NCBI GenBank assembly: GCA_963674745.2
Contig: CAXXDV010000001.1
Coordinates: forward strand, 416,001-480,000
DNA from: Desulfosudaceae bacterium
Lineage (GTDB): Bacteria; Desulfobacterota; Desulfobacteria; Desulfobacterales; Desulfosudaceae
Length of the DNA: 64,000 bases
Direction: 5' to 3'
Part shown: positions 7,332-22,800 of the stretch, piece by piece
Layout: every line of letters starts with the position of its first letter
Numbering within the stretch: position 1 is the first letter of the stretch
Position numbers and translations under genes: made by a program
Notes under the pieces: model-generated
What the model was told of the DNA's origin: nothing
Database searches by the model: none
The model's input: only the letters and a program-made list of their open reading frames with translations

Positions 7332-7979
7332 ATGGAATCGCAGGTCATATCAAAGAAACGGGTTGCTGATCATGGCGAAGTATTGACCGGAAACCGTGAG
7401 GTCAACGCCATGCTCGATCTGGTCAAGCAGGAAACAGAACGGATCGAATCGCGGTTTCTTGAACCGGCTTGCGGCACCGGGAATTTTCTGGCCGTGATCC
7501 TGGAAAGAAAGCTGGCGGTGGTCGAAAAGCGATACGGCAAGTCCCAACTGGACTTCGAACGTTACGCCGTCCTCGCTGTTTCATCCATCTACGGCGTTGA
7601 TATTCAGAAAGATAATGTCGAGCACTGCCGGCAACGGCTCTTCGGAATATTTGACCTGGCCTATCTGCGGTTGTTCAAGCACAAGACCAACGACGATTGC
7701 CGGGAGGCGGTGCGTTTTATTCTGGAAAAAAACATCGTCTGGGGCGATGCCCTTGATTTTAAGACCAAAGACAAGCCCCGGATGCCGATTCGCTTTTCCG
7801 AGTGGTCGCCGGTAAACGGCAGCATGCTCAAACGGCGGGACTTCATGTTGTCGTTTCTGGTGGAAAAACAGCATCAAATGCTGCTGTTCAGCGACGAAGG
7901 CGACGTTGCCGACTTAAACGAGCCTGTCAGGGAATACCCCCCGGTCCACTTCCTGGAGATCGCCCATGCTCAACAATAG
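7332..7979 (+). CDS. Short SAM-binding DNA methyltransferase-like subunit (no NPPY motif)
   Basis: HGEVLT, FLEPACGTGNF (motif I), IYGVDI, and NIVWGDAL. No [ND]PP[YF] catalytic motif in 215 aa. Confidence 0.8.
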   Translation: MESQVISKKRVADHGEVLTGNREVNAMLDLVKQETERIESRFLEPACGTGNFLAVILERKLAVVEKRYGKSQLDFERYAVLAVSSIYGVDIQKDNVEHCRQRLFGIFDLAYLRLFKHKTNDDCREAVRFILEKNIVWGDALDFKTKDKPRMPIRFSEWSPVNGSMLKRRDFMLSFLVEKQHQMLLFSDEGDVADLNEPVREYPPVHFLEIAHAQQ

Positions 7980-9510
7980 CGGCTACAATCCCGACGTGCT
8001 GTCCTGCATTGCCAACCTCTCCAGTGACGAGGTATTCACGCCGCCGCAACTGGCCAACCGGATTTTAGACCTGCTACCGGCAAAGATCTGGTCCGACCAA
8101 AAAGCCACGTTTCTGGATCCCGGCTGCAAGTCCGGCGTATTTCTGCGGGAGATCGCCAAGCGCCTGGACAAAGGACTGGAGAAAAAAATCCCCGCTCGGC
8201 AGAAACGGATCGACCACATCTTCAAAAACCAGCTTTACGGGCTTGCCATCACCGAACTGACCGCCCTGCTCTCGCGCCGGTCCGTCTATTGCTCCAAGAC
8301 AGCCAACGGCCGCTATTCCGTGTGCGACGCTTTTGACCGCCCGGAAGGCAACATCCATTTTGCGCGGGTGGAACATGCCTGGAAAAACGATCGTTGTCTA
8401 TACTGCCGAGCCGGCAAGAAGACCTACGAGCGGGGCGGTGATCTGGAAAGCCACGCCTATGCCTTTATCCATACAGAAAACCCGGAGGAACTTTTTCATA
8501 TGAAATTTGATGTCATTATCGGAAATCCCCCATACCAGTTGAGCGACGGAGGTTACGGAGAAAGCGCGCGACCGATCTACCACCTGTTCGTTGAGCAGGC
8601 AATGAAACTCAAGCCTCGCTACCTGACGATGATCATTCCCTCCCGATGGTTTGCCGGTGGCAAGGGCTTGGACGAATTCCGCCGCAAGATGCTCCATGAT
8701 CATCGCATTTCCCACCTGGTCGACTATCCCAAACTCTATGACGGATTTCCCGGCGTAAAGATCCGTGGCGGTGTCTCCTACTTCCTCTGGGAACGCGACT
8801 ACGATGGCCCCTGCTCGGTGCAAACCATGTGGGACGGCCAACCGCTCGGCCCACCTATGAAACGGCGCCTGGACACCTACGATGTTCTGGTCCGTCGGAA
8901 CGAGGCGGTCTCCATTCTGGACAAGGTCCGCGCCTACCGTGTCAAAGGAAAGCCTGAGACGACACTGGATGCGCGAGTGTCCTCAATGAAACCATTTGGC
9001 CTACGCACCTTTTTCCATGGCGCTGATTCACCTAAAGGCTTAAAAACTCCGGTGAAGTTATATGGATCACAACGTATTTCTTGGATCGACCGCTCGGACA
9101 TCCCACAAAATCCGGAATGGATTGACGAATGGAAGGTCTTGATGTCACGTGTTCAAGGTACCAGCTCTGCGGTTGAGACTATGTTTCTGAGTAAACCCAT
9201 CATTTCTGGGCCTGGAGAAGCCTGCACGGAGACTTATTTGGTCGCCGGCAGGTTTAAAAGCAAATTGAAGGCCGAACGATATGCGGCATATCTGCGGACG
9301 CGCTTTGTCCGGTTTCTTGTGTCGTTGCGCAAGTCAACACAGGATGCCGCAAAGCATGTCTATGCATTTGTCCCAGACATTCCCCTTGACCGCGAATGGA
9401 CCGACGAAAAACTCTATAAGCGGTATGGCCTGACCAAGGATGAAATCGCATTCATCGAAAAGATCGTCCGCCCGATGCCGGCCGACAGCGACGAGGCAGG
9501 CGATGCCTAA
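7966..9510 (+). CDS. Eco57I-type N6-adenine DNA methyltransferase
   Basis: DEVFTPP, FLDPGCKSGVF (motif I), FDVIIGNPPY (motif IV), IIPSRW, and C-terminal LYKRYGLTKDEI. Confidence 0.88.
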   Translation: MLNNSGYNPDVLSCIANLSSDEVFTPPQLANRILDLLPAKIWSDQKATFLDPGCKSGVFLREIAKRLDKGLEKKIPARQKRIDHIFKNQLYGLAITELTALLSRRSVYCSKTANGRYSVCDAFDRPEGNIHFARVEHAWKNDRCLYCRAGKKTYERGGDLESHAYAFIHTENPEELFHMKFDVIIGNPPYQLSDGGYGESARPIYHLFVEQAMKLKPRYLTMIIPSRWFAGGKGLDEFRRKMLHDHRISHLVDYPKLYDGFPGVKIRGGVSYFLWERDYDGPCSVQTMWDGQPLGPPMKRRLDTYDVLVRRNEAVSILDKVRAYRVKGKPETTLDARVSSMKPFGLRTFFHGADSPKGLKTPVKLYGSQRISWIDRSDIPQNPEWIDEWKVLMSRVQGTSSAVETMFLSKPIISGPGEACTETYLVAGRFKSKLKAERYAAYLRTRFVRFLVSLRKSTQDAAKHVYAFVPDIPLDREWTDEKLYKRYGLTKDEIAFIEKIVRPMPADSDEAGDA

Positions 9511-9612
9511 GCCAAAAAACAAAATTCCGGCGGACAAACCGGAGGCGCTTTTCCGGTCGCATTACCGCCCGCGTCAATCTCCAACACCTATGGATAGAAC
9601 AGGAGGTCATGG

Positions 9613-9879
9613 ATGACAAACGACAAGGCCCTGGCCGTATTCGAGAACTTCAAGATCCGGCGACGTTATGACGAAAAATCGGACGTCTGGTATTTTTCCG
9701 TGGTGGACATTATCGCGGCCCTGATCCAGCAGCCGGATCACCAGACCGCACGGAAGTATTGGAATAAACTCAAAGAACGGCTCAAGAAAGAAGGCAGTCA
9801 GTCGGTGACAAATTGTCACCAACTGAAACTGCCGGCCGCCGACGGGAAGATGCGGCTGAAAGGAAGCGAAGATGAGTAA
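9613..9879 (+). pseudogene. Truncated Bro-N domain (antirepressor-like) protein
   Basis: IRRRYD...WYFSVVDII...ARKYWNKLKERLKKEG..SVTNCHQLKL.AADGKMR, ending abruptly at the helicase start. Confidence 0.65.
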
Positions 9880-12430
9880 CGCCTTCTTCCCTCCCCGGCC
9901 TGAATCGCGGCCCACGATTTACGCTTACGAGGATACCCATCCGCAGTACGCGGGTTTGCTCAAGGTCGGGTATACGACCGTGGACGCGCAGACACGCGTT
10001 GCCCAGCAGTATCCGACCCTGCGTCCCGGCGCACCACCCTACCGAATTGTCCTGGAAGAAGCCGCCATGCGCGGCGACGGTACGGTCTTCACCGATCACG
10101 ACGTTCACCGCATGCTGCGGATCAACGGCATCAAGAACCCGCAAGGCGAGTGGTTTTGCTGCACGGTCGCCCAGGTCAAGGCGGCCATCATCGCCGTGCG
10201 CACCGGTCAATTGAACGAGGAAAACCGGTCCCTGGATTTTACCATGCGGCCCGAGCAGGAAGCAGCGGTAGAGAAAACAGCCGCCTACTTCGCCGGCTGG
10301 CGCAAGGATAAGGGCAACCGGAATAAACCGCCGCATTTCTTGTGGAACTGCAAGATGCGTTTCGGCAAGACCTTTGCCGCCTACCAGTTGGCCAAAAAGA
10401 TGGGCTGGCGCAAGGTGCTGGTGCTCACCTTCAAACCGGCGGTGCAAAGCGCCTGGGAAGAGGATTTGAAATGCCACGTAAATTTTGCGGGCTGGCAGTT
10501 TATCAAGCCCGGCGGCCTAACCTATGAACAGGCGAATAAGAAACGGCCGTTTGTCTGTTTTGGTTCGTTCCAGGACTATCTGGGCCGCAACCCCGACACG
10601 GGCGGCATCAAATCAAAGAACGAATGGGTTCATACGACCCACTGGGATTGCGTTATTCTGGACGAATACCACTACGGCGCCTGGCGGGAGACCGCCCGGG
10701 AGCTGTTTGAGGCCGAGGATAAGAAAGAAGTTGCCTTTGGTGTGGGGCAAGGCCTTGAGTTCTTAAAAGAGCGGGACGATAAAATAGCGGACATCATGCC
10801 GATCACCACAAACGGTTATCTCTACCTGTCCGGCACGCCGTTTCGGGCCATTGCTTCCGGCGAATTCATCGAAGAACAGATTTTCAACTGGACTTACTCC
10901 GATGAACAGCGGGCCAAAAACGACTGGAAAGGTTCCGGCAACCCCTACGCGGCGTTGCCAAGGATGGTGTTGCTGACCTACCAGCTGCCGGACGCGATTC
11001 GGGAAATCGCCATGCAGGGTGAATTTAACGAGTTCGACCTGAATATCTTTTTTTCCGCCGAGGGGATCGGCAATAAGGCCAAATTCAAGTACGCGAGCGA
11101 GGTTCAGAAATGGCTTGACCTGATCCGGGGCGCGTTCCTGCCGACCAGCGTCGACAGCCTGAAACTCGGCGCGCGCAAGCCGCCCATGCCGTTCTCGGAT
11201 GTGCGGCTGCTGGGCGTGCTTTCCCATTCCTTCTGGTTTTTACCGAGCGTGGCGGCCTGCTACGCCATGCGCAATCTGCTGGCCAAACGGCAGAACCGGT
11301 TCTACCACGACTACGAGGTCATTGTAGCGGCCGGGAACGCCGCCGGAATCGGCGTGGCGGCCCTGGCCCCGGTCCAGGAGGCCATGGACGATCCCCTGAC
11401 CACCAAAACCATCACCCTTTCCTGCGGCAAGCTGACCACCGGCGTAACGGTCAAGCCGTGGACGGGGATTTTGATGCTGCGCAACTCATCTGTTCCGGAG
11501 ACATATTTCCAGGCGGCTTTCCGGGTACAATCGCCATGGACGGTCCGTAATCCGGGCGGCGCCTCTCCCAATTCCGAGCAGATTATCAAGGAGGAATGTT
11601 ATGTTTTTGACTTTGCGCCGGACCGGGCCTTGCGCCAGATTGCGGATTACAGTTGCCGGTTGAACGTCAATGAAGAGAACCAGGAAAAAAAGGTCGAGGA
11701 ATTTATCAGCTTCCTGCCGGTTCTGGCGTATGACGGCAGTTCCATGAAACAGATCGACGCCGCCGGGATTCTCGACATGGCCATGAGCGGCACGACGGCC
11801 ACCCTGCTGGCCCGGCGCTGGGAAAGCGCCTTGCTGGTGAATGTGGACAACGACACCCTGCATCGCCTGATGGATAACAAAAAGGCCATGGATGCCCTCA
11901 TGAGCATCGAAGGGTTCCGCACCCTGAATCAGGACATCGAGACCATCATCAACAAGTCCGAAGCCGTGAAAAAGGCCCGCAAAGAGGCCAACGACCAGGA
12001 ACTGTCCGCACAACAGAAGAAGGAACTTTCCCAGGAGGAAAAGGAGTACAAGAGCCGCAGAAAACAGATCCAGGAAAAGATCATCAAGTTCGCCACTCGC
12101 ATTCCCATCTTCATGTACCTGACCGACTTTCGCGAGCGGACCCTGAAGGACGTGATTACCCAACTGGAACCGGGCCTGTTCAAGAAGGTGACGGGCCTGA
12201 CCGTGACCGACTTCGAGCTACTGGTCAGCCTGGGGCTGTTCAACAGCGCCTTGATGAATGACGCCATTTACAAGTTCAAGCGATATGAAGACGCCAGCCT
12301 GAGTTACACCGGAATTTACAAACACGAAGGCGAGGACATCGGCCTTTACGATACGGTCATCACCCGAAATGACGCGGCCGGCATATTCGAGAACATTTCA
12401 GCCAACCCCCTCGCCCCACCAAACTCTTGA
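9872..12430 (+). CDS. GIY-YIG/T5orf172 nuclease fused to SF2 (ResIII-like) helicase; putative restriction subunit
   Basis: N-terminal IYAY..LLKVGYT..R....HRML..GEWF; helicase motifs KMRFGKT, DEYH, LSGTP, and QAAFRVQSP. Confidence 0.82.
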   Translation: MSNAFFPPRPESRPTIYAYEDTHPQYAGLLKVGYTTVDAQTRVAQQYPTLRPGAPPYRIVLEEAAMRGDGTVFTDHDVHRMLRINGIKNPQGEWFCCTVAQVKAAIIAVRTGQLNEENRSLDFTMRPEQEAAVEKTAAYFAGWRKDKGNRNKPPHFLWNCKMRFGKTFAAYQLAKKMGWRKVLVLTFKPAVQSAWEEDLKCHVNFAGWQFIKPGGLTYEQANKKRPFVCFGSFQDYLGRNPDTGGIKSKNEWVHTTHWDCVILDEYHYGAWRETARELFEAEDKKEVAFGVGQGLEFLKERDDKIADIMPITTNGYLYLSGTPFRAIASGEFIEEQIFNWTYSDEQRAKNDWKGSGNPYAALPRMVLLTYQLPDAIREIAMQGEFNEFDLNIFFSAEGIGNKAKFKYASEVQKWLDLIRGAFLPTSVDSLKLGARKPPMPFSDVRLLGVLSHSFWFLPSVAACYAMRNLLAKRQNRFYHDYEVIVAAGNAAGIGVAALAPVQEAMDDPLTTKTITLSCGKLTTGVTVKPWTGILMLRNSSVPETYFQAAFRVQSPWTVRNPGGASPNSEQIIKEECYVFDFAPDRALRQIADYSCRLNVNEENQEKKVEEFISFLPVLAYDGSSMKQIDAAGILDMAMSGTTATLLARRWESALLVNVDNDTLHRLMDNKKAMDALMSIEGFRTLNQDIETIINKSEAVKKARKEANDQELSAQQKKELSQEEKEYKSRRKQIQEKIIKFATRIPIFMYLTDFRERTLKDVITQLEPGLFKKVTGLTVTDFELLVSLGLFNSALMNDAIYKFKRYEDASLSYTGIYKHEGEDIGLYDTVITRNDAAGIFENISANPLAPPNS

Positions 12431-12559
12431 CATCATTCCCTTGGTTCACTAATCTTTTTAATATTATTTTCGCATAATATCGGGGAGGGAGTGTTTTCAT
12501 GCCGATAAATACGGCCTTATTTCCAATAGCAAGGGATTTTCGCGTTTTGGGCGGTTTTC

Positions 12560-12620
12560 CATGTTTGCTTCTTAATAATGGTAATAAATGAAAAATGTTC
12601 TACCTATTACGCTGTTGGGC
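12560..12620 (+). other. attI-like integron recombination junction (G^TTGGGC at 12614)
   Basis: GTTGGGCTGC (12614-12623) is a 9/10 complement of GCGGCCCAAC at the end of the next gene. There is no left attC arm upstream, and the flank is AT-rich. Confidence 0.5.
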
Positions 12621-12647
12621 TGCTCATATACACATTTGGAAATGAAA

Positions 12648-13343
12648 ATGGGAAATAAGAAACCAAGGAGTTATACGCAAGAAGATCTGTTAAAACTTTA
12701 TTTGCGCCTTAATGGCTTTTTCATCACTGGTTTTATCGTACATTCACCTGATTTTGGAAAGAATCGAACCGAAATTGATGCTCTCGCCATTCGCTTACCA
12801 CATAATGCAGAACCTGAAAGAGTCTTAGAACCCTCACCTTATTTAGAACCATCCATTGACCTTGTTGATTTTTTAATATGCGAGGTGAAAAGTAAGGGAC
12901 AAAAATTACGGTTCAATGATTCTCTCTGTAACTCTCTATCAGCTATTGAAAGTGTTTTGCGTTGGGGAGGCCTTTTTTGTGAAAAAGAAGTTATAGCGTT
13001 AGCCCCTGAGGTTCAAAATATTATCCAGCAAGCTAACCCATCTAAACAAGAAATACCCATGCTTCTTGGTCCACGAAAAACCCGTATTCGAGCAATTCTT
13101 TGTTCACCGGAAAGATGGAACAAGCGAAGCAATCAACCTTGGTTTATCAACGGTCAAGAAATTTTTGGCTATCTCTGGAAATGCTTTTGTCCAGATGAGC
13201 CGCGCAGCACTTGTTCAACAGTTTATGATTTTACAGCGTGGGGCAAAAGCTATGATCAACTGGTTAGATACTTCAAAGATAGAAAGCGGAAAAATCAATC
13301 ACAAGGCACGATTAATGATCTATATAAAGATCTTGGCATATAG
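12648..13343 (+). CDS. Uncharacterised PD-(D/E)XK nuclease-like protein (gene cassette 1)
   Basis: E..L..YLRLNGF, TEIDALAIR and LICEVKS fit the E..D..ExK restriction-endonuclease fold. AT-rich. Start placed inside the cassette (12642 is an alternative). Confidence 0.65.
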   Translation: MGNKKPRSYTQEDLLKLYLRLNGFFITGFIVHSPDFGKNRTEIDALAIRLPHNAEPERVLEPSPYLEPSIDLVDFLICEVKSKGQKLRFNDSLCNSLSAIESVLRWGGLFCEKEVIALAPEVQNIIQQANPSKQEIPMLLGPRKTRIRAILCSPERWNKRSNQPWFINGQEIFGYLWKCFCPDEPRSTCSTVYDFTAWGKSYDQLVRYFKDRKRKNQSQGTINDLYKDLGI

Positions 13344-13351
13344 TTACGGCG

Positions 13352-13413
13352 GCCCAACCTTTGCTCTCACGGCGACGGCAAAAAGACGCCGCTCGTGAAG
13401 CTGAGCGTTGGGC
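13352..13413 (+). mobile_element. Integron attC site (intact)
   Basis: R'' GCCCAAC, L'' GCTCTCAC, GGCG..CGCC stem, L' GTGAAGC, R' GTTGGGC. It is 62 bp, has one extrahelical base in the L box, and begins a few bases after the stop codon. Confidence 0.82.
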
Positions 13414-13447
13414 TGATACTCTGCCCAATAACAAATGAGGAGTCATT

Positions 13448-15955
13448 GTGGTTGATTTCGAAAAATTAAGAACCAAGAAGAAAAAAATGAAGGTTATAGA
13501 ACCCTCTGAAATTTTCCGTCGTTTACCTAAGCCACTTGGAATCAATGATCTCTACACAAGTCAAGCTGAGGTGCTCCATGCTTGGTTTGAAAATCGACAA
13601 GAACGTGACACGGTCATAAAGCTGCATACTGGTGGAGGTAAAACATTGGTTGGCCTTCTTATGGCTCAATCAACATTGAATGAAACTTCAGAACCTGTTC
13701 TTTATTTATCTTCGACAGTCCAACTTGTCAACCAGACTATAGAGAAAGCTATGGCTATTGGCATAAATGCCGTTGCATACGAACGGGGGCAGCCGTTGAG
13801 CGACGATTTCGTAAACGCAAATGCAGTAATGGTCGGCACATATAAGGCTTTATTTAATGGTCGGAGCAAATTTGGTCTTCGGGGTGACCCATTACCTCAG
13901 AGAGTATCAGCAGTCATCCTTGATGATGCCCATGCTGCTTTTTCGGTTGTGCGAGAATCTTTTACACTTGATGTCAAAGCCGAGCTGGATAGGGACAGAT
14001 ATGAATGTTTAGCTGGTTTGTTCCGAAAGGCATTTAAGGAAATAGATAAAATTGGGACATTTGATGATATTCTTGCGGGTTCTGAATATTCTGTTTTGGA
14101 AGTTCCTTATTGGGATTGGCATAAACAAATTGACGCTGTCCGTGAGCAAATAAGATCGGATGCAGACAAATATTCTTTAGTTTGGCCACTTTTAAGAGAT
14201 CAATTGCACCTTTGTCATGCGCTTATAAGCCGTAGTGCTTTCACTGTTACACCGGTACTTCCCCTTGTGAATGCATTTCCAACCTTCTTTGATGCATCAC
14301 GTCGCATTTACATGTCTGCAACAATAGCAGATGATAGCGATATCGTCCGTACATTTGATGCTACACCAGAAGCAGTGCAGAAGCCACTGACTTCTCGATC
14401 GTTGGCCGGTGTAAGTGAACGTATGATTTTGATTCCTGATCTGATGCCTTTCAAATTTAACGTGCCCGATGCGATTAAAAAACTTGTAAGATGGACTTCA
14501 AAGAAAAACCTTGGGGCAATAATTCTTGTCTCATCAGGTAAAGCTGCTGAAAAATGGGTAGAGTGTGCGACTGTTGCAAAGGGCTCTACTGAAGTCGAAA
14601 AACTTGTAGCCGACCTGCAAGAAAGGACAACATCGGGACCTGCTGTATTTGCAAACCGATACGACGGTATCGATTTGCCAGGGGACTCGTGTCGGTTGCT
14701 TGTCATGAGCGGCCTGCCTGCTGGAACATCAAATTACGAACTTTTTCGAGCAGCTGCACTTTTTGGGGGTGCAACAATTACTAGGATGCTCGCCCAACGA
14801 ATTGAGCAAGGCATTGGAAGGGGAGCCCGAGGATCTGGTGATCATTGTGTAGTCCTGCTTGCTGGGGCAGATATCGCAGGCTGGATAGCAAAAGACGCAA
14901 ATTTTAAGCTTTTAACCAACGCCACAAGAGCTCAGCTTGAAATGGGTGCTGAGATCAGCAAGGAAGTGAGCGATCTTAAGGATCTTGCACAAACAATCAA
15001 ACGGAGTTTCGATCGCGATAAAGGATGGGTTGAATATCACGCAGAAACACTCGCTGAACTGGTTGAGGAAGAAGCGCCAGACCAATTGCGTTTTATACAA
15101 GCCGCTGGGGAAAGAAAAGCAATTAATTTATGGATCGACGGCTATCATGGGCAGGCAATATCGAAAATTGAGAAAACGCTGCTTAAAATAAATACTTTGG
15201 ATTTACAAATTTGCGGTTGGATGGAACAATTAGCTGGTCGTATAGCCGATCATTGGGGACACCCTGAACGGGCGGATGATTTCCAGCGACAAGCATTCGC
15301 ACATAATCGTTGCCTAATTCGCCCGAAAGTTATTCCCCCTTATCGCCCGCTATCAACGCCCGGTGCTCAAACGCAGGCAATTGTAAGTCAACTTACTGAT
15401 TATCGATTAAGACGAGGGTTTTTACAGTCTTTTGAGGAGGTTGTCGCGCGTTTACACCATTGCTCATCCGCAAATCAATTTGAACAGGCTTTGGCTGATC
15501 TTGCAATCATGATTGGGTTTTCCTCCGAGCGACATGATGTAAATGGCCAAGGGCCAGATGTATTATGGCTTTTGCCAGAAAAAATTGGATTTGTCATTGA
15601 AGCAAAAAGCCGAAAAAAGGAAAAAAAGGCACTTACTAAAGAGGAGCATGGACAACTCTTAGTCGCTGCCGAATGGTTTAATGCCAACTATAAAGGATAT
15701 GAATGTGTACGTGTGAGTGTGCATCCTAAAAATCAAGCGACCAAAGCTGCCGTTGCAGGTGCATCACACGCCTTAACCTATGAAAAATTAGCGCTCCTTG
15801 TTTCAGATTCTCGTTCTCTTCTTTCTGCTCTTTGCGAGTCCCAACTTCCGGCAGAGAATCTCGTGGCAGAGTGTCAAAGACTTTTATCATGTTCATCAAT
15901 AAAATCAGGAAAAATTATAGAGAATTATTTACTTCCTTTTAAAGAAACTGAATGA
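13448..15955 (+). CDS. SF2 (DinG/XPD-like) helicase with C-terminal PD-(D/E)XK nuclease; Hna-like anti-phage candidate (gene cassette 2)
   Basis: LHTGGGKT, LDDAH, MSAT, RYDGIDLP, and QGIGRGAR motifs; C-terminal GPDVLW...VIEAKS. Confidence 0.78.
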   Translation: MVDFEKLRTKKKKMKVIEPSEIFRRLPKPLGINDLYTSQAEVLHAWFENRQERDTVIKLHTGGGKTLVGLLMAQSTLNETSEPVLYLSSTVQLVNQTIEKAMAIGINAVAYERGQPLSDDFVNANAVMVGTYKALFNGRSKFGLRGDPLPQRVSAVILDDAHAAFSVVRESFTLDVKAELDRDRYECLAGLFRKAFKEIDKIGTFDDILAGSEYSVLEVPYWDWHKQIDAVREQIRSDADKYSLVWPLLRDQLHLCHALISRSAFTVTPVLPLVNAFPTFFDASRRIYMSATIADDSDIVRTFDATPEAVQKPLTSRSLAGVSERMILIPDLMPFKFNVPDAIKKLVRWTSKKNLGAIILVSSGKAAEKWVECATVAKGSTEVEKLVADLQERTTSGPAVFANRYDGIDLPGDSCRLLVMSGLPAGTSNYELFRAAALFGGATITRMLAQRIEQGIGRGARGSGDHCVVLLAGADIAGWIAKDANFKLLTNATRAQLEMGAEISKEVSDLKDLAQTIKRSFDRDKGWVEYHAETLAELVEEEAPDQLRFIQAAGERKAINLWIDGYHGQAISKIEKTLLKINTLDLQICGWMEQLAGRIADHWGHPERADDFQRQAFAHNRCLIRPKVIPPYRPLSTPGAQTQAIVSQLTDYRLRRGFLQSFEEVVARLHHCSSANQFEQALADLAIMIGFSSERHDVNGQGPDVLWLLPEKIGFVIEAKSRKKEKKALTKEEHGQLLVAAEWFNANYKGYECVRVSVHPKNQATKAAVAGASHALTYEKLALLVSDSRSLLSALCESQLPAENLVAECQRLLSCSSIKSGKIIENYLLPFKETE

Positions 15956-15961
15956 ATGAGA

Positions 15962-16021
15962 ACTCAACAATTTGCTGCAAGGGATCGCAAAAAGCCGCTC
16001 CCCGTGAGCAACACGTCCGGC
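15962..16021 (+). mobile_element. Integron attC site (degenerate R')
   Basis: ACTCAAC..TTGCTGCAAGGGA..TCCCCGTGAGCAA..GTCCGGC; 60 bp. The GTT core reads GTC. Confidence 0.65.
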
Positions 16022-16036
16022 ATAAAGGAGTAGTTC

Positions 16037-17821
16037 ATGAATGATTCCCCACTTATTACTTTGTTTAAAGAACAATTAGAGAATGAATCTTTATCGATAG
16101 CTCAAACCTTAGGATTATCAAAACGTGGGGACCATCTAATATGGTGGTATTTTAGGAAATTATTTGGATTATCTGATGCAGAAATTTCTGAAATAATCTG
16201 CGATGGTGGCAATGATTTGGGCATTGACGCTGTATATATAGATCCTGACAATTATGTCCATTTTTTTCAATTTAAAAATCCAGAATCTGTTGATAATATC
16301 ATGGCTGCAGGGGACATAGACAAAATGTTATCCGGTTTGCATCTTATTTTAGAAAGGAACCATGATAAAATTGCCAATGAAGAATTAAGGGGAAGGGTCG
16401 AAGAAATCTATCAAATCATACCAAATGGGTATCGTATCCATATAATAACATCTGGAAATGAAATTCCTAAAGAATCTAAGATAAAAATAGAATCTTTTAT
16501 TGATAGCCTTCAAGGACCATCAGAGGATTTCATTTCATGGATTGTTGAGAATATAAAATACCTTCAGGATACATTTTACAGGAAATCCCTACCTGTAATC
16601 GAAGACAACATTGTTTTTTCGATCGAAAGGGGAATCCCCTATCAAGTTCGATCGGCAAACCATGATTGTTATATTCTGCATTCTACTGGAAAATTTTTGG
16701 CTGAACTATATGACAAATACGGCGAACAACTTTTGCAACAAAATATAAGGGTTTATCGTGGCGACAGATCAACAAATGCAGCTATAAGACAAACCTGCAT
16801 TGGGGAAGAATCTGCTAATTTTTTTCACTTTAATAATGGCATAACTTTTTTATGTGAAGAGGCCAAATGGGATCAGTTTACGGGTGTTTTAACTCTTAAA
16901 AAGGCGCAAATAGTAAATGGTGGCCAAACAGCACGTGTTATATACCGCTCGTATAATGATGGTAATTTGAAGGGAGATGTTTTAATCCCTATCCGGGTAA
17001 TCACCTCTCAAGGTGATAAGGATTTCGCAAATAACGTCGCTGTGAATCTAAACAATCAAAATACAGTTGAAAGCAGTTTCTTAAGATCGAACCACCCAAG
17101 TATAATCCAGCTTTCGAACTCAATGGCGACACTTGGGTGGTATTTGGAGAGAAGGGAAGATGAACTTAAGTATTTGACGGATGGAGAAAGGCAAGAAATA
17201 GAACAAAAAATTGGCCAATCTTTAGACGGGCATGTTATCCCCATCAAAGCAGGAACCCAAGCCTATGCTGCAACTTTCTATAGACAGCCGGAGTTAGCGA
17301 AAAAAAATCTTAAATTACTATTTATGAATAGAAGTGACAATGGGCATTTTGATAGAATATTTAACGCTAATTTAACTGCTGAAAACTTTTTAAACTCTTT
17401 CAGGATAAAACAACATATTGATGATTATGTCAAAAGATTTGGTACAATGAAAAGAAGAAAAGCAAGAATTGATGGATGGAAAGATGAATACAAAGATTTT
17501 TTAGGTGAATCAATTTACGATAATTATATTGATATCATTGATCAAGTTATCCCTCAATCTGCTGTTTTTGTCACGGCTGTTATTTTTGAAAAAAATGTAA
17601 AAATAAAAGGAGTAAGTGTTGATAATCTATTAGATGTATTAAATGAAAATTCGGATTCTTTAATTAACGGAATCATTTCAAAAATTTTAAATTTTGCAAA
17701 GAATAATCCAGAAGTTGCCAATAAAAGTTGGCCAACTTTATTAAAGAGCCAGACTTTTTTTAATCATATTTGTGCTTATCTAAGTGGCCTTGAAGAAAGA
17801 AGTGCTGAACAAGCGGATTAA
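16037..17821 (+). CDS. AIPR family protein (gene cassette 3)
   Basis: N-terminal DGGNDLGIDA..FFQFK; AIPR motifs QNIRVY, FFHFNNGIT, QIVNGGQT, and NNQN. Confidence 0.88.
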   Translation: MNDSPLITLFKEQLENESLSIAQTLGLSKRGDHLIWWYFRKLFGLSDAEISEIICDGGNDLGIDAVYIDPDNYVHFFQFKNPESVDNIMAAGDIDKMLSGLHLILERNHDKIANEELRGRVEEIYQIIPNGYRIHIITSGNEIPKESKIKIESFIDSLQGPSEDFISWIVENIKYLQDTFYRKSLPVIEDNIVFSIERGIPYQVRSANHDCYILHSTGKFLAELYDKYGEQLLQQNIRVYRGDRSTNAAIRQTCIGEESANFFHFNNGITFLCEEAKWDQFTGVLTLKKAQIVNGGQTARVIYRSYNDGNLKGDVLIPIRVITSQGDKDFANNVAVNLNNQNTVESSFLRSNHPSIIQLSNSMATLGWYLERREDELKYLTDGERQEIEQKIGQSLDGHVIPIKAGTQAYAATFYRQPELAKKNLKLLFMNRSDNGHFDRIFNANLTAENFLNSFRIKQHIDDYVKRFGTMKRRKARIDGWKDEYKDFLGESIYDNYIDIIDQVIPQSAVFVTAVIFEKNVKIKGVSVDNLLDVLNENSDSLINGIISKILNFAKNNPEVANKSWPTLLKSQTFFNHICAYLSGLEERSAEQAD

Positions 17822-17856
17822 CTTTGATCCAAAAAACCTGGCGCTTTTTGTGGGTA
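17804..17856 (+). mobile_element. Truncated attC site (left arm only)
   Basis: GCTGAAC-aagcGGATTAAC followed by a CAAAAA..TTTTTG stem. The AIPR stop lies in the L'' box, and no L'/R' arm is recognisable. Confidence 0.45.
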
Positions 17857-17888
17857 AGACCAAACGCTACAAATTAGGTGGAAATTCG

Positions 17889-18765
17889 ATGAAAAAGAAT
17901 AGCCAGATGCCGAAATACCATGAGCTCATGAACCCACTTCTTAAAGCGCTTCATGAATTGGGCGGCTCAGGTTCCATTGAAGAGATTGCGCAAAAAGTTT
18001 CAGAATTATCCGGCTTACCGGAAGAGATATTGAATATTCCGCATAACCCGGAAAAGAGCAGTCAGACTGAAATTGAATATCGTTTGGCCTGGGCACGCTC
18101 CTATCTGAAAAAATATGGTTTATTGGACAATTCAGATAGAGGTGTCTGGCTGATTGTTCCTGAAAAACGCGATGTAAAAACGGTTGATCCCCAAGTTGTT
18201 GTAAAAACAGTACGAGACGAACACAAAAAACAAAAAGCGGCCAGCGAAAAGGCAAAAACAGAAGAAGATGTGGAAGACGATATTGAAATTCCGGATGAGG
18301 CTGAGTCCTGGCGTGGCGCCCTCCATCATGTCCTCATAAACGAAATATCGCCGGATGCTTTTGAAAGATTAACAAAAAGAATTCTAAGGGAATCCGGGTT
18401 TGTGCAGGTTGAAGTAACGGGCCGTTCCGGGGATGGTGGAATCGACGGTAAAGGCATCATGCGATTAAGTGGTCTGCTGAGTTTTCACGTAATTTTTCAG
18501 TGCAAGAAATACAAGGGTACCGTTACGCCTCGGATATTCGTGATTTCAGAGGGGCAATGATAGGGCGGGCCGACAAGGGCCTTTTATCACAACAGGCACT
18601 TTTACTCGCGATGCTGTCCGCGAGGCAACAAGGGATGGGGCGCCACCGATCGATCTTGTTGATGGGGACCAGCTCGCGGACAAGTTAAAGGAATTGGGGC
18701 TTGGAATAAAAAAAGAAATGGTCGAAAAAATTTCAATCGATACGGAGTGGTTCAAATCAATATAG
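17889..18765 (+). pseudogene. mrr: Mrr family restriction endonuclease with two frameshifts
   Basis: Mrr_N (YRLAWARSYLK..GLL....RGVW) and catalytic FE...GRSGDGGIDG..QCKKY. The C-terminus continues only after single-base losses at about 18526 and 18582-18585 (SDIRDFRGAM.. / ITTGTFTRDAVREA..IDLVDG). Confidence 0.85.
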
Positions 18766-18809
18766 GATGTATCAAGGAAAAAGATAAAGATCGTAGAGGG
18801 AAAAACAGA

Positions 18810-19838
18810 ATGACCCGACCATCCGACACATCCGAAATTGTCCTTTATCAAACCGAAGACGGCAAGATAAAGATTGACACGGTCTTTCAGGACGAAACTA
18901 TCTGGCTGACCCAGGCGAGAATGGCGGAGCTGTTTGACGTCAATGTTCCGGCCATATCCAAACATCTAAACAACATATTTGAAGAGGGAGAACTGCAAAA
19001 AGAGGCAACTGTTTCCAAAATGGAAACAGTTCAACAGGAAGGCAACCGGCAGGTGACCCGGACCAGGGACTTTTATAATCTCGACGCCATCATTGCCGTG
19101 GGTTACCGGGTCAATTCCAAAAGAGCCACCCAGTTCAGAATCTGGGCGACCCATATCCTGAAAGAGTACATTATCAAAGGCTTTGCCATGGATGATGACC
19201 GCCTGAAACAGGCGGACCGATGGGACTATTTTGATGAGTGGCTGGAACGTATTCGGGATATCCGGGCATCGGAAAAACGCTTTTATCAGAAAATTCGGGA
19301 TATTTACGCTACGGCCATAGATTACGATAAAAACTCGGAACAGGCGCAAGTTTTTTTTAAGAAGGTTCAGAATAAAATGCTCTGGGCCATCACCGGCAAA
19401 ACCGCAGCCGAAATTATCGAATCACGAAGCAATCCGGACAAACCCAATATGGGCCTTACCTCATGGCGTGGTTCCATAGTCAGAAAATATGATGTAGGTA
19501 TTGCCAAGAATTACCTGAAGGCAGATGAGATAAAGGACTTGAATGAGATCGTGACCATGTATCTGGATTATGCCGAAAGGCAGGCCCGGCAGAGAAAAAC
19601 CGTGACCATGGAACATTGGTCGGATAAACTCGATGCCTTTCTGAAATTCAATGAGCAGGAATTGTTGACCCATGCGGGAAAAGTGAAGGCGGAAGTCGCT
19701 AAAAAAATCGCTGAAGACCGATACGGAGCGTTTGATAAAAAACGAAAAACAGCCGAGGCCCGAGCGGCTGATGAGGAAGATTTAAAAGCGCTTGAAGAAA
19801 TCGAAAAAATGCTTCTTGAAAAGCGAGATGAGAACTAA
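18810..19838 (+). CDS. Virulence RhuM family protein
   Basis: ETIWLTQARMAELF, YNLDAIIAVGYRVNSKRATQFRIWAT, and RIRDIRASEKRFYQK. Confidence 0.9.
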   Translation: MTRPSDTSEIVLYQTEDGKIKIDTVFQDETIWLTQARMAELFDVNVPAISKHLNNIFEEGELQKEATVSKMETVQQEGNRQVTRTRDFYNLDAIIAVGYRVNSKRATQFRIWATHILKEYIIKGFAMDDDRLKQADRWDYFDEWLERIRDIRASEKRFYQKIRDIYATAIDYDKNSEQAQVFFKKVQNKMLWAITGKTAAEIIESRSNPDKPNMGLTSWRGSIVRKYDVGIAKNYLKADEIKDLNEIVTMYLDYAERQARQRKTVTMEHWSDKLDAFLKFNEQELLTHAGKVKAEVAKKIAEDRYGAFDKKRKTAEARAADEEDLKALEEIEKMLLEKRDEN

Positions 19839-22800
19839 CCCATCAACGATTCCACAATACCCGGCAGCAGTTCCGGGAGCATGGCAATGTCTTTGATGAT
19901 CAGGTACTCTTCCGGGGCGCACATTTTTTTCAGGTAATCGTTGCCGGCCTGGTCGATGGTAATGCAGAACGGTTTGATGTCCAGCCGTTTGGCCTCGATA
20001 AAGGCCATCATGGTGTCGTTCAGCCCGTATTCCCGCGACTTTCTGTCTTCACCATAATCAAGGTCCTGGGGAAAACCGTCACTGAGCAGAATCAACAGGC
20101 GATGGTCGGCCTCAAGGTTGCTTAATTTTGCGGCGGCATGGCGGATGGCCGTGCCCATGCGCGTGCTCTGCTTGGGCTCGATACCGCAGATCCGCATTTT
20201 AACCTTCTCGGAGTTGGTCTCCTCAAAGGATTTGATGACATAATAATCCACGTTTTTTCGACCGCGTCCGGAAAACCCGTACATGGCATACTGGTCACCG
20301 AGCGCGTCCAGGGCTTCGGACATGACGATCAGGCTCTCCTTTTCAATATCGATCACCCGCTTGTCATCCTCGTCCGGGGCGCTGTCCGGCCGGTCGCTAT
20401 CCGTTTGATCCGGGGCGGATATGTCAGACGCCCGGTCTTCGGTGGAAGCGCTCATATCAATCAGCAAAAGGGTCGACATGTGCCGCACTTTTTTGTCTTT
20501 GCGGCAGAACACCCGATCCGAAGGGATTGCCCCGGCCTTTTTGTCGACCACGCTCCGGATCAGGGCCGTCAGGTCGATTTCATCTCCCTGGTCGACATTA
20601 TGGATAATATCCAGTGATGCCGGCCGGATACGCTGAAACTGGAAGCGGACTTTGCGAATCAGGTCGCCGTATTCCGTGTATATCCGGTGATATTGGTCCG
20701 GATCACTCTGGGGCGTCCGCCTTTCTTTGAGGCAACACCACCTGGTCCGGTATTCTTCAGCCAGGTAATCCCACTCATCATAAAAAAACGTTTTCTTTTC
20801 GCTGCGGCCTTTAACCACCGCTTTTCCGGCTTTTATCCGCTGTTTGTTGTCCTTTTTTTCACGGTTGTCTGACTGATCTCCGACATCCCCCTTGACCGTA
20901 AAGTCCTCCAGATCGGAAAGATAAAGCCCTTTTGCGGACGGCGTGAAGTCAAGAGAACTTAACAGGGTCATATCCTGGGTCATATCAAGCAGCCGTTCCA
21001 GCTCTTCCGGCGTCAGGGTGATATCATCGCCCTGACCGGGTTCATCAGCCTCAACGACCCTGTCCGGCACGACATCTTCCAGCCCCTCTCCTGCCGGGCC
21101 GTCCGGCATCCCGTCCATGCGAAGCGATACGGGTAAAATTGTCTTTTGGGTTCTGCGCCGTCCGAGAGCACTCAGGGCGTCATAGATCAGGGCCGTTTTT
21201 TTATATGAATCAAGCACATTTTCCGAATTTAAATGAAAATCAGACACCTGCTCTTTTAAAAAGGCACCGGCGGAAACGAGGGGTTCGGTTGTTTCGATGT
21301 CAACCGGGTAATCAAGGCAAAGCCGCAAAAGCCACTCAAGGGCCGTGCCCAGGAGATTGTTGTAGGGGACCGGCCGCTTTAACATCGATTTTCCGATAAC
21401 GCGCCCGATATCCGGGGCCAGCCCGGGATAATGTTTTCTGAGGTTGCGAAAAACCCTGCCGTCTTCAAGGATATGAAAGATCTCAAGGGCCAGCTCCCTG
21501 TCCGGAAAAGATTCCAGAAGGGACCATATGCCGGCAAATTCGGGGTTCAATGTTCCGAACTCCAGATACCCGGCCTTTAACGCGGCGGCCACCTTATAAA
21601 AACTTAAATTGGCCTCGGCATTGTTCTCTTCGGCAACATATGGCGCCAGATAAAACGTGAACCCGTTTTCATCGGCCTTAAGGCCAAGCCGATTTTTATC
21701 GACAAGGTCCATTTCTTCTCTGCTGCGGATGCGGATTTTTTCTCCGCAGAGCGCCCGGCAGAACAAGCCCAGCATTTCCCGGTTTTGTTCCAGAAAGGCG
21801 GCGTTTCCCCATTTGTCCAGTTCGGCGGCTGAGGCCGGCGAGTTCAGGCGAAAATAAGCCAGGCCATCTTCCGGATTATCTTTGAAAATCGCCACGCCTT
21901 TGCTGACCCAGTACGCCAGAAAAAGAACCGGTATTTGCCCCAAAACCGCTTTAATATTCTGATAATAGGCCAGGCCGACGGCCGCCGAAGCCTCTTCCAG
22001 GCGGCTGTCCATCTTGACAATCATTTCCTGGACCGGATTTGAAAAAAGGGTCAGTGACTGCACCATATCATTAAAAACAGAAAGGATATCTTCAGGCCGG
22101 CCGGATGACAGGTCCATGATTTTTTCCAGAACCACATCGCGCAGGTTGGGGTTTATCCGCCGGACAAGGCCGGGACCGGTTTGGTAAAATTCAACGGCCT
22201 TGTCGGCAAAGGCGGTTGAGGCAATACCGGTAATCCTGAAAATTTTCGTTATTTCAGAAAGGTAAAGCTGATCAAGGCCCTCGGGCGTCAGAGAGAAATA
22301 ACGGGTGGCGGCCTGACCGCTTTGCCTTAACAGAAGGCAGCCGGTTTCCCGCCAGATTTTATAAACCCGTGGGGTGAGAAAGCGCAGCACCCGGCCCGAT
22401 GTGGTTAAAAAAGCGGAAACCGTCTCTTCTTCGGCATGTTCAAGGCCGAAAATCCGGATCGCGTCTGAAGCCAGCTGGTTGATCTGGGGAAACCGCGCGC
22501 TTTCCAGAAATTCCGGGGTGGCGGCAAAATAATCCCCGGCACAGGGAATCGATATTTTTCCGATCCTGATGCCGGCATTGCCCCAGTCTTTAAGGTGATC
22601 AAACCCTTCGTTGCAGAAAAACGGACCGCTTGATTCAAAATAGTGTCGCACCAGGCCGTCGTTTTCCGGAAAGGCCCGGCTGATTTTTTTCCCGGTTGAT
22701 ACCCAGCGGCCATAGTCTTTTTTTGAAAGAACCGCCCGGGCATGCCCGGCGGCCGTTAAAAACGATTTTCCGCAGGCTTCGGATATATCTGTAAAAAAAG

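Follow-up and report, generated by a model that had tools for sequence, protein, structure and literature searches.

How do genes with integron-type ends come to stand in a chromosome far from an integrase gene, and can they still leave? The question is raised by a window of 64,000 nucleotides (the whole stretch analysed here; positions without a contig name count from its first letter) of a Desulfosudaceae bacterium, corresponding to C1:416001-480000 of the host genome G000 (5.55 Mb, three contigs, 50% GC). We consider it likely that positions 12555 to ~17866 are a remnant integron platform of the CALIN type (a cluster formed by attC sites, with no integron integrase) within a defence island. 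A shortened attI site without an adjacent intI gene would head three cassettes, which would have been integrated at attI by an integron integrase. The preliminary description of this DNA had proposed an integrase-less integron array, in agreement with the attI homology, the two attC sites detected by covariance models and the lack of a tyrosine recombinase gene in the window reported below. The array has the following features.

12555-12614, plus strand: shortened attI with one 42-nt unit (12555-12596), core TTCTACCTATTACGCT and crossover G at 12614
12615-13407, plus strand: cassette 1, 793 bp, delimited by the 9-nt repeat GTTGGGCTG at 12614 and 13407
12648-13343, plus strand: cassette 1 gene, 231 aa, uncharacterised family with a possible PD-(D/E)xK nuclease-like fold (homologue family, structure model)
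13352-13413, plus strand: attC 1, intact, 62 nt (covariance-model matches, fold, homologue in G022)
13408-16015, plus strand: cassette 2, 2608 bp, between the G/TT of attC 1 and the G/TC of site 2
13448-15955, plus strand: cassette 2 gene, 835-aa DEAD/ResIII helicase, PDC-S28 (Pfam DEAD, ResIII, Helicase_C_2; phrog_16128)
15962-16021, plus strand: attC 2, decayed (covariance-model matches; homologues in G007, G029 and G028)
16016-~17866, plus strand: cassette 3, about 1.85 kb, starting at the site 2 crossover, its end placed roughly where similarity to the G037 attC is lost
16037-17821, plus strand: cassette 3 gene, 594-aa AIPR/AbiU-like abortive-infection protein (Pfam AIPR PF10592, E 2.9e-32, above cut-off)
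17804-17850, plus strand: attC 3 remnant, R'' GCTGAAC, left arm and loop only (homology to the G037 attC)

What supports the first junction as an attI site is homology of sequence. The preliminary description had already read it as attI, and homology can now be added both to the attI at the C3:2348261 intI gene and to C1:2265473. When 41 genomes (G000 itself plus 40 relatives) were searched at the DNA level, 12555-12607 matched G002:C5, C1:2265473 and C3:2348163-2348203, the last of these lying directly upstream of the host intI at C3:2348261. The 42-nt unit is identical at 36/42 positions to C1:2265473 and at 35/42 to C3:2348163, and the core at 19/23 to C1:2265642. The layout of this attI family is the intI start, then two units of ~42 nt (TTTCCAYGTTT...TTAATA...GTAATAAATGGAAAAT) separated by the first part of the unit in inverted form, then a core that ends in ...TTATTACACT directly before the GTT with which the first cassette starts. 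The first cassette of the C3 integron starts with GTTCGGTGC and ends with the R'' box GCACCGAAC, the two being complementary at 9/9 positions. Compared with the full sites, the window attI has one unit and the core TTCTACCTATTACGCT followed by GTTGGGC, and lacks one repeat unit and the ~34 nt in between. Its G/TT crossover is at 12614/12615 and GTTGGGC at 12614-12620, which corrects the earlier coordinates. Genome-wide, the unit occurs four times at <=9 mismatches (window, C1:2265473, C1:958693 and C3:2348163), with intI only at the last. The 124 nt from the helicase stop codon of the left neighbour to the unit (12431-12554) have no similarity to the left parts of the three attI regions (330-515 of 1000 shuffles score as high) or to intI.

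Two of the other heads were characterised further. C1:2265473-2265662 (L019, L029) is a full-length, intI-less attI head; it follows immediately on an acyl-CoA-synthetase-like gene, starting at the end of its stop codon, and the array behind it extends to about 2286728. The head at C1:958600-958740 (minus strand) is likewise intI-less, is shortened otherwise than the window copy and ends in ...ATTATTACACT before GTTATGC. In its longest frame (251 aa), the cassette 1 gene of the window begins with the ATG at 12588, which belongs to the attI remnant and lies 60 nt upstream of the start used by the 231-aa homologues (12648); attI might supply a translation start here.

The attC architecture (R'' RYYYAAC, R' GTTRRRY, L boxes, unpaired spacers and an extrahelical base) was detected in full in site 1, in part in site 2 and as the left half in site 3. 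Site 1, claimed as intact from the outset, stands as such. Its R'' GCCCAAC and R' GTTGGGC are complementary at 7/7 positions, with spacers of 5 and 6 nt, an extra C in L'' relative to L' and a short loop. The bottom strand folds at -19.4 kcal/mol (z -3.9; 0/200 shuffles fold as well), and both covariance models described below match the site end to end. The DNA search of the 41 genomes mentioned above, made with 9000-21000, gave short isolated matches at exactly the three sites, and the homologues of all three, in other genomes of the order, are intact attC-type AAC...GTT hairpins behind genes unrelated to those of the window. For site 1 this is a G022 homologue, 85% identical over 13356-13409.

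Site 2 had been described as carrying GTC in place of GTT, which is confirmed for its R' box; R'', the L boxes and the spacers are kept, and R'' and R' are not complementary. Over 15965-16017 it is 90% identical to a G007 copy and 87% identical to copies in G029 and G028, the G029 copy lying in a 3.7-kb contig with four attC sites. Compared with these three homologues, the window copy has four private changes at positions invariant among them, and each breaks a stem pair or the GTT; three stem pairs are broken. The four copies compare as follows on the bottom strand.

Window site 2: 14/18 pairs kept, -9.1 kcal/mol, z -0.84, the weakest fold of the four
G007 copy: 17/18 pairs, -15.4 kcal/mol, z -2.0
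G029 copy: 18/18 pairs, -17.2 kcal/mol, z -3.4
G028 copy: 14/18 pairs, -12.5 kcal/mol, z -1.2

Site 3 had been thought to retain its left arm only, and this is what homology gives: 17807-17850 is 89% identical to an intact 70-nt attC of G037 (L025:3980-4049, minus strand) through R'', the left arm and loop, diverging after GCGCTTTTTG. The right arm is unrelated to that of G037 and the partner of GCGGATTAAC is absent. The order intact, damaged, half-lost with increasing distance from attI, one of the first claims about the array, is therefore real. The array holds three different short attC types, unlike the ~125-nt family of the host.

Two covariance models were built for this analysis, distinct from the model of IntegronFinder itself, and were run on both strands of the window with filters off. 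R1 was built from six sites, with no window sequence and no site 1 homologue, and includes homologues of sites 2 and 3. R2 was built from 18 sites of seven genomes (G000 outside the window, G007, G022, G028, G029, G037 and G241), none of them from the window. A covariance-model scan had been suggested beforehand, and it matched exactly 13352-13413 and 15962-16021 on the plus strand with nothing else at E<1. R1 gave 48.1 bits (E 5.5e-10) for site 2 and 23.0 bits (E 0.0018) for site 1 in the 64 kb, the latter score being independent of any site 1 homologue. With R2, site 2 scored 38.0 bits (E 1.7e-7) and site 1 scored 32.8 bits (E 4e-6), and the next best match in the window had 8.9 bits and E about 9. 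The two model-detected sites lie 2.55 kb apart, and with R2 the array thus falls within the CALIN definition of two or more attC sites within about 4 kb. Site 3 was matched by neither model. A scan of the host genome with R1, in which 150 of 708 candidates were scored, detected short attC sites that lie at the distal end of known arrays or past it and are oriented as those arrays are, and the long attC family at lower score.

Other detectors added little. None of the six Rfam matches in 11000-21000 reached its gathering score, in a library that holds no attC family. With nhmmer, each site was without a paralogue in the host genome, and site 2 did not find site 1 at E<=100. The direct pairwise score of sites 1 and 2, 24, was equalled by 4/2000 shuffles and by 18/4736 windows of the 64 kb and is suggestive only. 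Scans for AAC...GTT hairpins were discarded as a detector, being too noisy.

The lack of a tyrosine recombinase gene in the window, claimed earlier, was confirmed: none of the 31 TIGR02249 matches and none of the 21 PF00589 matches of the genome falls inside C1:416001-480000, and no intI pseudogene was detectable at the locus. The genome search for intI and related attC sites that had been recommended found three intact intI genes above cut-off, all outside the window, the nearest on the same contig starting at C1:2117407, ~1.69 Mb away. A conserved attC family of ~125 nt (core CCAGGGC...GCCCTGG) was found as well, in about eight clusters, the pattern being loose and the counts approximate. 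The largest of these clusters, C1:1480170-1531328 and C3:1816447-1849471, do not adjoin intI.

Further observations concern the integrons of the host and of a relative. C3:365500-381500 (L030) is another degenerate integron, with an intI fragment carrying two stop codons at C3:367178-367351 (minus strand) and, on the plus strand, short attC sites at C3:369453-369510 and 376409-376468, of which the latter immediately follows a Phd/ParE toxin-antitoxin pair. A tyrosine-recombinase-like frame of 255 aa, followed in every case by a 70-aa piece after a TAA, has four copies (C1:1739981, C1:2102784, C1:2282749 and C3:2332314), all inside or at the edge of cassette arrays; it may be a mobile element that targets arrays. 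The relative G007, a 99%-complete genome in a single contig, is without intI, yet has attC sites at L026:2345-2405 (L026 being G007:C1:810000-817000) and C1:1931881, so that isolated cassettes persist there too.

The boundaries of the cassettes differ in how clearly they can be read. Complementarity between the cassette start and its own R'' box had been taken as the signature of integrated cassettes. The first ten bases of cassette 1 are complementary to its own R'' region at 9/10 positions, which upholds the claim for this cassette, and the imperfect match described for cassette 2 is also found, at 6/9; cassette 3, which had been said to match, reaches only 6/9. For cassette 2 the 5' edge is cassette-precise, because homology to a metagenome relative of the helicase gene (L060; 86% protein and 82% DNA identity, alignment 13405-15967) starts 2 nt before the G of the R' of attC 1, behind a different attC-like hairpin. 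That hairpin, upstream of the aligned part of L060, has a bottom-strand z of -3.0 and ends in GC followed by GTTGTGC. In L060 a 260-aa gene stands upstream of PDC-S28; its product is no relative of the cassette 1 protein (E 2.1), and a conserved pair of cassette 1 gene and PDC-S28 was therefore rejected.

Contigs of four public sequencing runs were compared with 11000-20500, and two runs of one sample reproduce 11000-18221 without difference. In the bin with attC 1 the depth rises from ~7 to 154-233, and loose ends at 13356 and 13398-13403 enter different sequences; there are therefore many differently flanked copies of the attC 1 core in the community. Several of the sequences that follow the core in these runs begin with GTTAGGG, GTTATGC or GTTAAC. 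Run X4, from another study, has a 151-nt contig that matches 12614-12719 at 92% and stops at the 12614 boundary, and a 6.5-kb contig that matches 13449-15971 at 92.6% and is then unlike the window. Circles of cassette 1, a search for which had been recommended, were looked for as an excision joint in the contigs of the four runs and not found, and contigs drop rare variants. A joint 12995>17980 in the run contigs was disregarded, having 21 letters on its shorter side and occurring in one contig.

The preliminary description had the array carrying only large defence-type genes. This holds for cassettes 2 and 3, with their PDC-S28 and AIPR/AbiU products, and fails for cassette 1, which has 793 bp and no known defence role. 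The cassette 2 protein matches the PADLOC model PDC-S28, a candidate defence family, at E 2.2e-277, with residues 1-832 aligned to profile positions 1-828 of 831, and site 2 stands 8 nt after the stop codon of its gene. PDC-S28 relatives were detected in 4 of 400 other genomes of the order, and in G265 two long attC sites come before the gene (R2 E 4e-5 and 0.009). The cassette 3 protein matches PADLOC AbiU (E 3.1e-39) and phrog_1841, Abi alpha-like, and the stop codon of its gene falls within site 3. Of the 400 genomes, 18 have AIPR relatives, with attC at the 3' end of the gene in 2 of the 18 loci. A 578-aa AIPR homologue in G241 is bounded by attC on both sides, the first 11 bases of its cassette being complementary to its own R''.

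The cassette 1 protein gave no match in Pfam, NCBIfam, PADLOC or PHROG. It belongs to an unnamed family spread across many phyla, for which 169 or more homologues were detected (E<=0.001), each about 225-235 aa long; D44 and E79-V80-K81 are invariant among 40 aligned sequences. Its structure model is confident, with a predicted local distance difference test score (pLDDT) of 91.9. The best fold matches are PD-(D/E)xK nucleases, the top one being 1y88 (Z 6.5, root-mean-square deviation 3.0 over 103 residues), and FokI (Z 5.1) and HamA and VRR-NUC (Z 4.7) are further fold neighbours; the best Foldseek E is 0.02. With scores this modest, the protein is a candidate PD-(D/E)xK nuclease. Scanning 54 of 60 genome loci of the family with R2 gave four matches at E<1, two of them directly adjoining the gene. 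No relative of the cassette 1 protein was found among the 400 other genomes of the order, and a search of 12 other genomes from the family of the host found none of the three cassette genes.

We propose the following history for the remnant integron platform. An integron integrase would have made the cassette junctions, inserting the cassettes at attI. Mutation would later have removed recombination features, stripping site 2 of its GTT triplet and of stem pairs and site 3 of its right arm; having lost features needed for recombination, cassettes 2 and 3 would therefore be locked in place. Cassette 1, next to attI, could still be excised or moved by host integrases acting in trans, given its canonical attC 1 and the intact attI core, and thus may still be mobile. 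The order of attC decay would then reflect age, with the newest cassette proximal and the cassettes being fixed, as three sites suggest. Cassettes 2 and 3 would each hold a full-size anti-phage system made of a single gene, the PDC-S28 helicase in one and the AIPR/AbiU protein in the other, and the cassette genes presumably defend against phages.

Several results weigh against this reading. A monotonic order of decay among only three sites has a one in six chance of arising in the given direction. Bottom-strand folding, which had been put forward as a check, bears out site 1, which beats all 200 shuffles, and fails for sites 2 and 3, which fold no better than shuffles (42/200 as good for site 2 at z -0.84, 41/200 for site 3 at z -0.85) and so are not callable as attC on structure alone. 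By pair count alone the window copy of site 2 does not stand out, since the G028 homologue also keeps 14/18. As R1 and R2 contain homologues of sites 2 and 3, and R2 also of site 1, the scores of site 2 are partly kinship. The promoter and terminator scan of 12300-18900 gave 15 promoter-like sites with 14.7 expected, none of which stands out. PDC-S28 relatives in metagenome loci (eight scanned with R1, seven with R2, all but L067) had no credible attC, the best E being 0.12. The DNA homology of cassette 2 ends at 15967 with L060 and at 15971 with the X4 contig, within the R'' of site 2 or just past it, where the core conserved in the site 2 attC family also begins. The helicase gene may therefore have a history separate from that of site 2, and a simple history of one cassette with one decaying attC does not explain this break.

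The break is the main support for a rival history, in which an integron integrase made attI and cassette 1 alone, illegitimate or homologous recombination at short R''-type microhomology brought in the PDC-S28 and AIPR genes (the homology stops at the CAACAA of R''), and sites 2 and 3 are attC fragments dragged from other arrays and do not belong to these genes as decaying attC sites. The eight metagenome loci of PDC-S28 relatives without model-detectable attC fit such separate arrivals, as does the abrupt loss of similarity after the loop of site 3. We still consider this history unlikely, because the 5' end of cassette 2 lies within 3 nt of the attC 1 crossover, because site 2 is a full attC span, R'' through R', correctly oriented and, at 8 nt after the stop codon, in its customary position, and because AIPR and PDC-S28 homologues stand in attC-bounded cassettes elsewhere. 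The same break could also be the trace of an attC joining a gene, that is, of cassette genesis, within a distributed integron in which three intI genes would serve three or more attI heads that have no intI of their own (window, C1:958693 and C1:2265473). All of these heads might receive cassettes in trans, the full-size defence genes having been captured at the window head; to us this extension seems improbable. Very unlikely, in our judgement, is an array that is still fully active, in which attC sites tolerate sequence change, the resident integrases still recombine at least site 2 and nothing is being fixed. Site 2 indeed still scores 38-48 bits with the models, its G028 homologue has as few standard pairs in another genome, and the host has three intact intI genes; the crossover triplet, however, is GTC and not GTT, R'' and R' are not complementary, the site folds no better than shuffles, and site 3 has no right arm. 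Hardly to be entertained is the explanation that the three sites are ordinary intergenic hairpins or terminators with integron features by chance. A perfect 7-nt R''/R' pair at 40-140 nt spacing does occur 28 times in the genome, mostly in sequences that do not look like attC, and the folds of sites 2 and 3 are weak. The attI homology, the model matches far above background, the homologues in arrays of other genomes and the many differently flanked attC 1 cores in the source runs already contradict it.

The remnant integron platform lies among other defence-type genes, of which the RM-like (restriction-modification-like) helicase upstream had been recognised in the preliminary description and is confirmed by its T5orf172 and ResIII domains and its REase_MTase_IIG match. 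The neighbours are listed below.

7332-9510, plus strand: two DNA methyltransferase genes
9872-12430, plus strand: T5orf172 and ResIII helicase gene, type IIG-like RM module, left neighbour outside the array (Pfam T5orf172, ResIII)
17889-18765, plus strand: Mrr-type type IV restriction gene, right neighbour (Pfam Mrr_N, Mrr_cat; PADLOC mREase_IV)
18811-19838 (longest frame from 18747), plus strand: RhuM/PDC-S05 gene, right edge of the island (Pfam RhuM, E 2.8e-114; PADLOC PDC-S05)

The GC content is 0.34-0.45 at 12-20 kb of the window and 0.52-0.58 on both sides. The three cassettes have 0.34-0.44, compared with 0.57 for the helicase gene and 0.53 for the gene that follows the island on its right. 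With the RM module to their left and the Mrr and RhuM genes to their right, the cassettes would form a low-GC defence island. The left-neighbour helicase (PADLOC REase_MTase_IIG, E 7e-25) is 92% identical to G007:C1:1057607-1060170, and this homology stops at 12431, one base past the stop codon. The genes that follow the helicase differ in G007 and G002, the G007 copy adjoining a glycyl-radical enzyme gene. The whole methyltransferase and T5orf172-helicase module (7332-12431) has an 87-92% identical copy at another chromosomal place in G007, and is therefore itself mobile.

On the right, the contigs of the public runs have one extra base after 18525 and one after 18581 of the Mrr gene, and with both the frame is 292 aa long, versus 223 aa in the assembly. 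The two frameshifts are probably assembly indels, and an Mrr pseudogene was rejected, both being bases absent from the assembly relative to the run contigs. No attC was detected between the Mrr and RhuM genes. The RhuM segment 18787-19838 is 91% identical to G007:C1:813077-814128, which ends at the stop codon and has an attC ~700 nt upstream; in the window the RhuM gene abuts a convergent VWA gene.

How does the locus compare with known systems? Unlike a complete integron, it has an attI head by homology but no intI adjacent. CALINs were defined by Cury et al. (2016; PMC4889954), in whose passages on them intI pseudogenes are near only 15/279, the clusters are proposed as a possible evolutionary step between integron acquisition and genomic stabilisation, their cassettes may still be excised by an integrase encoded elsewhere, and the mechanism of cassette genesis is stated as unknown. 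The corresponding passage of Néron et al. (2022; PMC9024848) calls attI sites poorly described outside class 1 and not searched for. In both papers CALINs are proposed to be degraded integrons and a stage on the way to stabilised captured genes. Like the CALINs described there, the window has two attC sites 2.55 kb apart with no intI nearby and IntI encoded elsewhere in the genome; unlike them, as far as those passages describe them, it keeps a recognisable attI remnant.

The survey of Darracq et al. (bioRxiv 10.1101/2024.07.02.601686), in its statements on the matter, reports 783 defence systems in integron and CALIN cassettes, with <=2 components and smaller than the same systems elsewhere, and calls them streamlined. 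The window shares with its sedentary chromosomal integrons single-gene defence systems as cassettes, CALIN cassettes being part of the survey. It differs in that its PDC-S28 covers the full 831-position profile and its cassettes measure 2.6 and 1.85 kb, and in the host, a Desulfobacterales-type bacterium and not a Vibrio. The mobile integrons of bioRxiv 10.1101/2024.07.02.601719 also have cassettes of unknown function that encode phage defence; by that account they are plasmid-borne with an integrase, whereas the window array is chromosomal, integrase-less and decaying. IntI insertion outside att sites, as outlined in bioRxiv 10.1101/2022.09.11.507474, would likewise give cassettes far from intI, but here the upstream junction is homologous to a real attI and there is more than one cassette.

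Defence cassettes in integrons and CALINs as a fixation step are thus already published, and the full-size cassettes and the attI remnant are modest additions. The locus leaves general knowledge of integrons unchanged and illustrates, clearly but as one would expect, how captured genes become fixed in genomes. Its additions are an attI remnant that can still be read, graded attC damage, two full-size defence cassettes and attC types foreign to the arrays of the host, and the host genome offers matched controls in three complete integrons and two further intI-less attI heads. Full-length defence genes of 2.6 and 1.85 kb can evidently be integron cassettes, where published surveys stress small, streamlined ones. 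Taken as a whole, the locus is a clean example from nature of an idea that is in print but has seldom been illustrated, that integrase-less attC clusters are captured genes becoming ordinary chromosomal genes.

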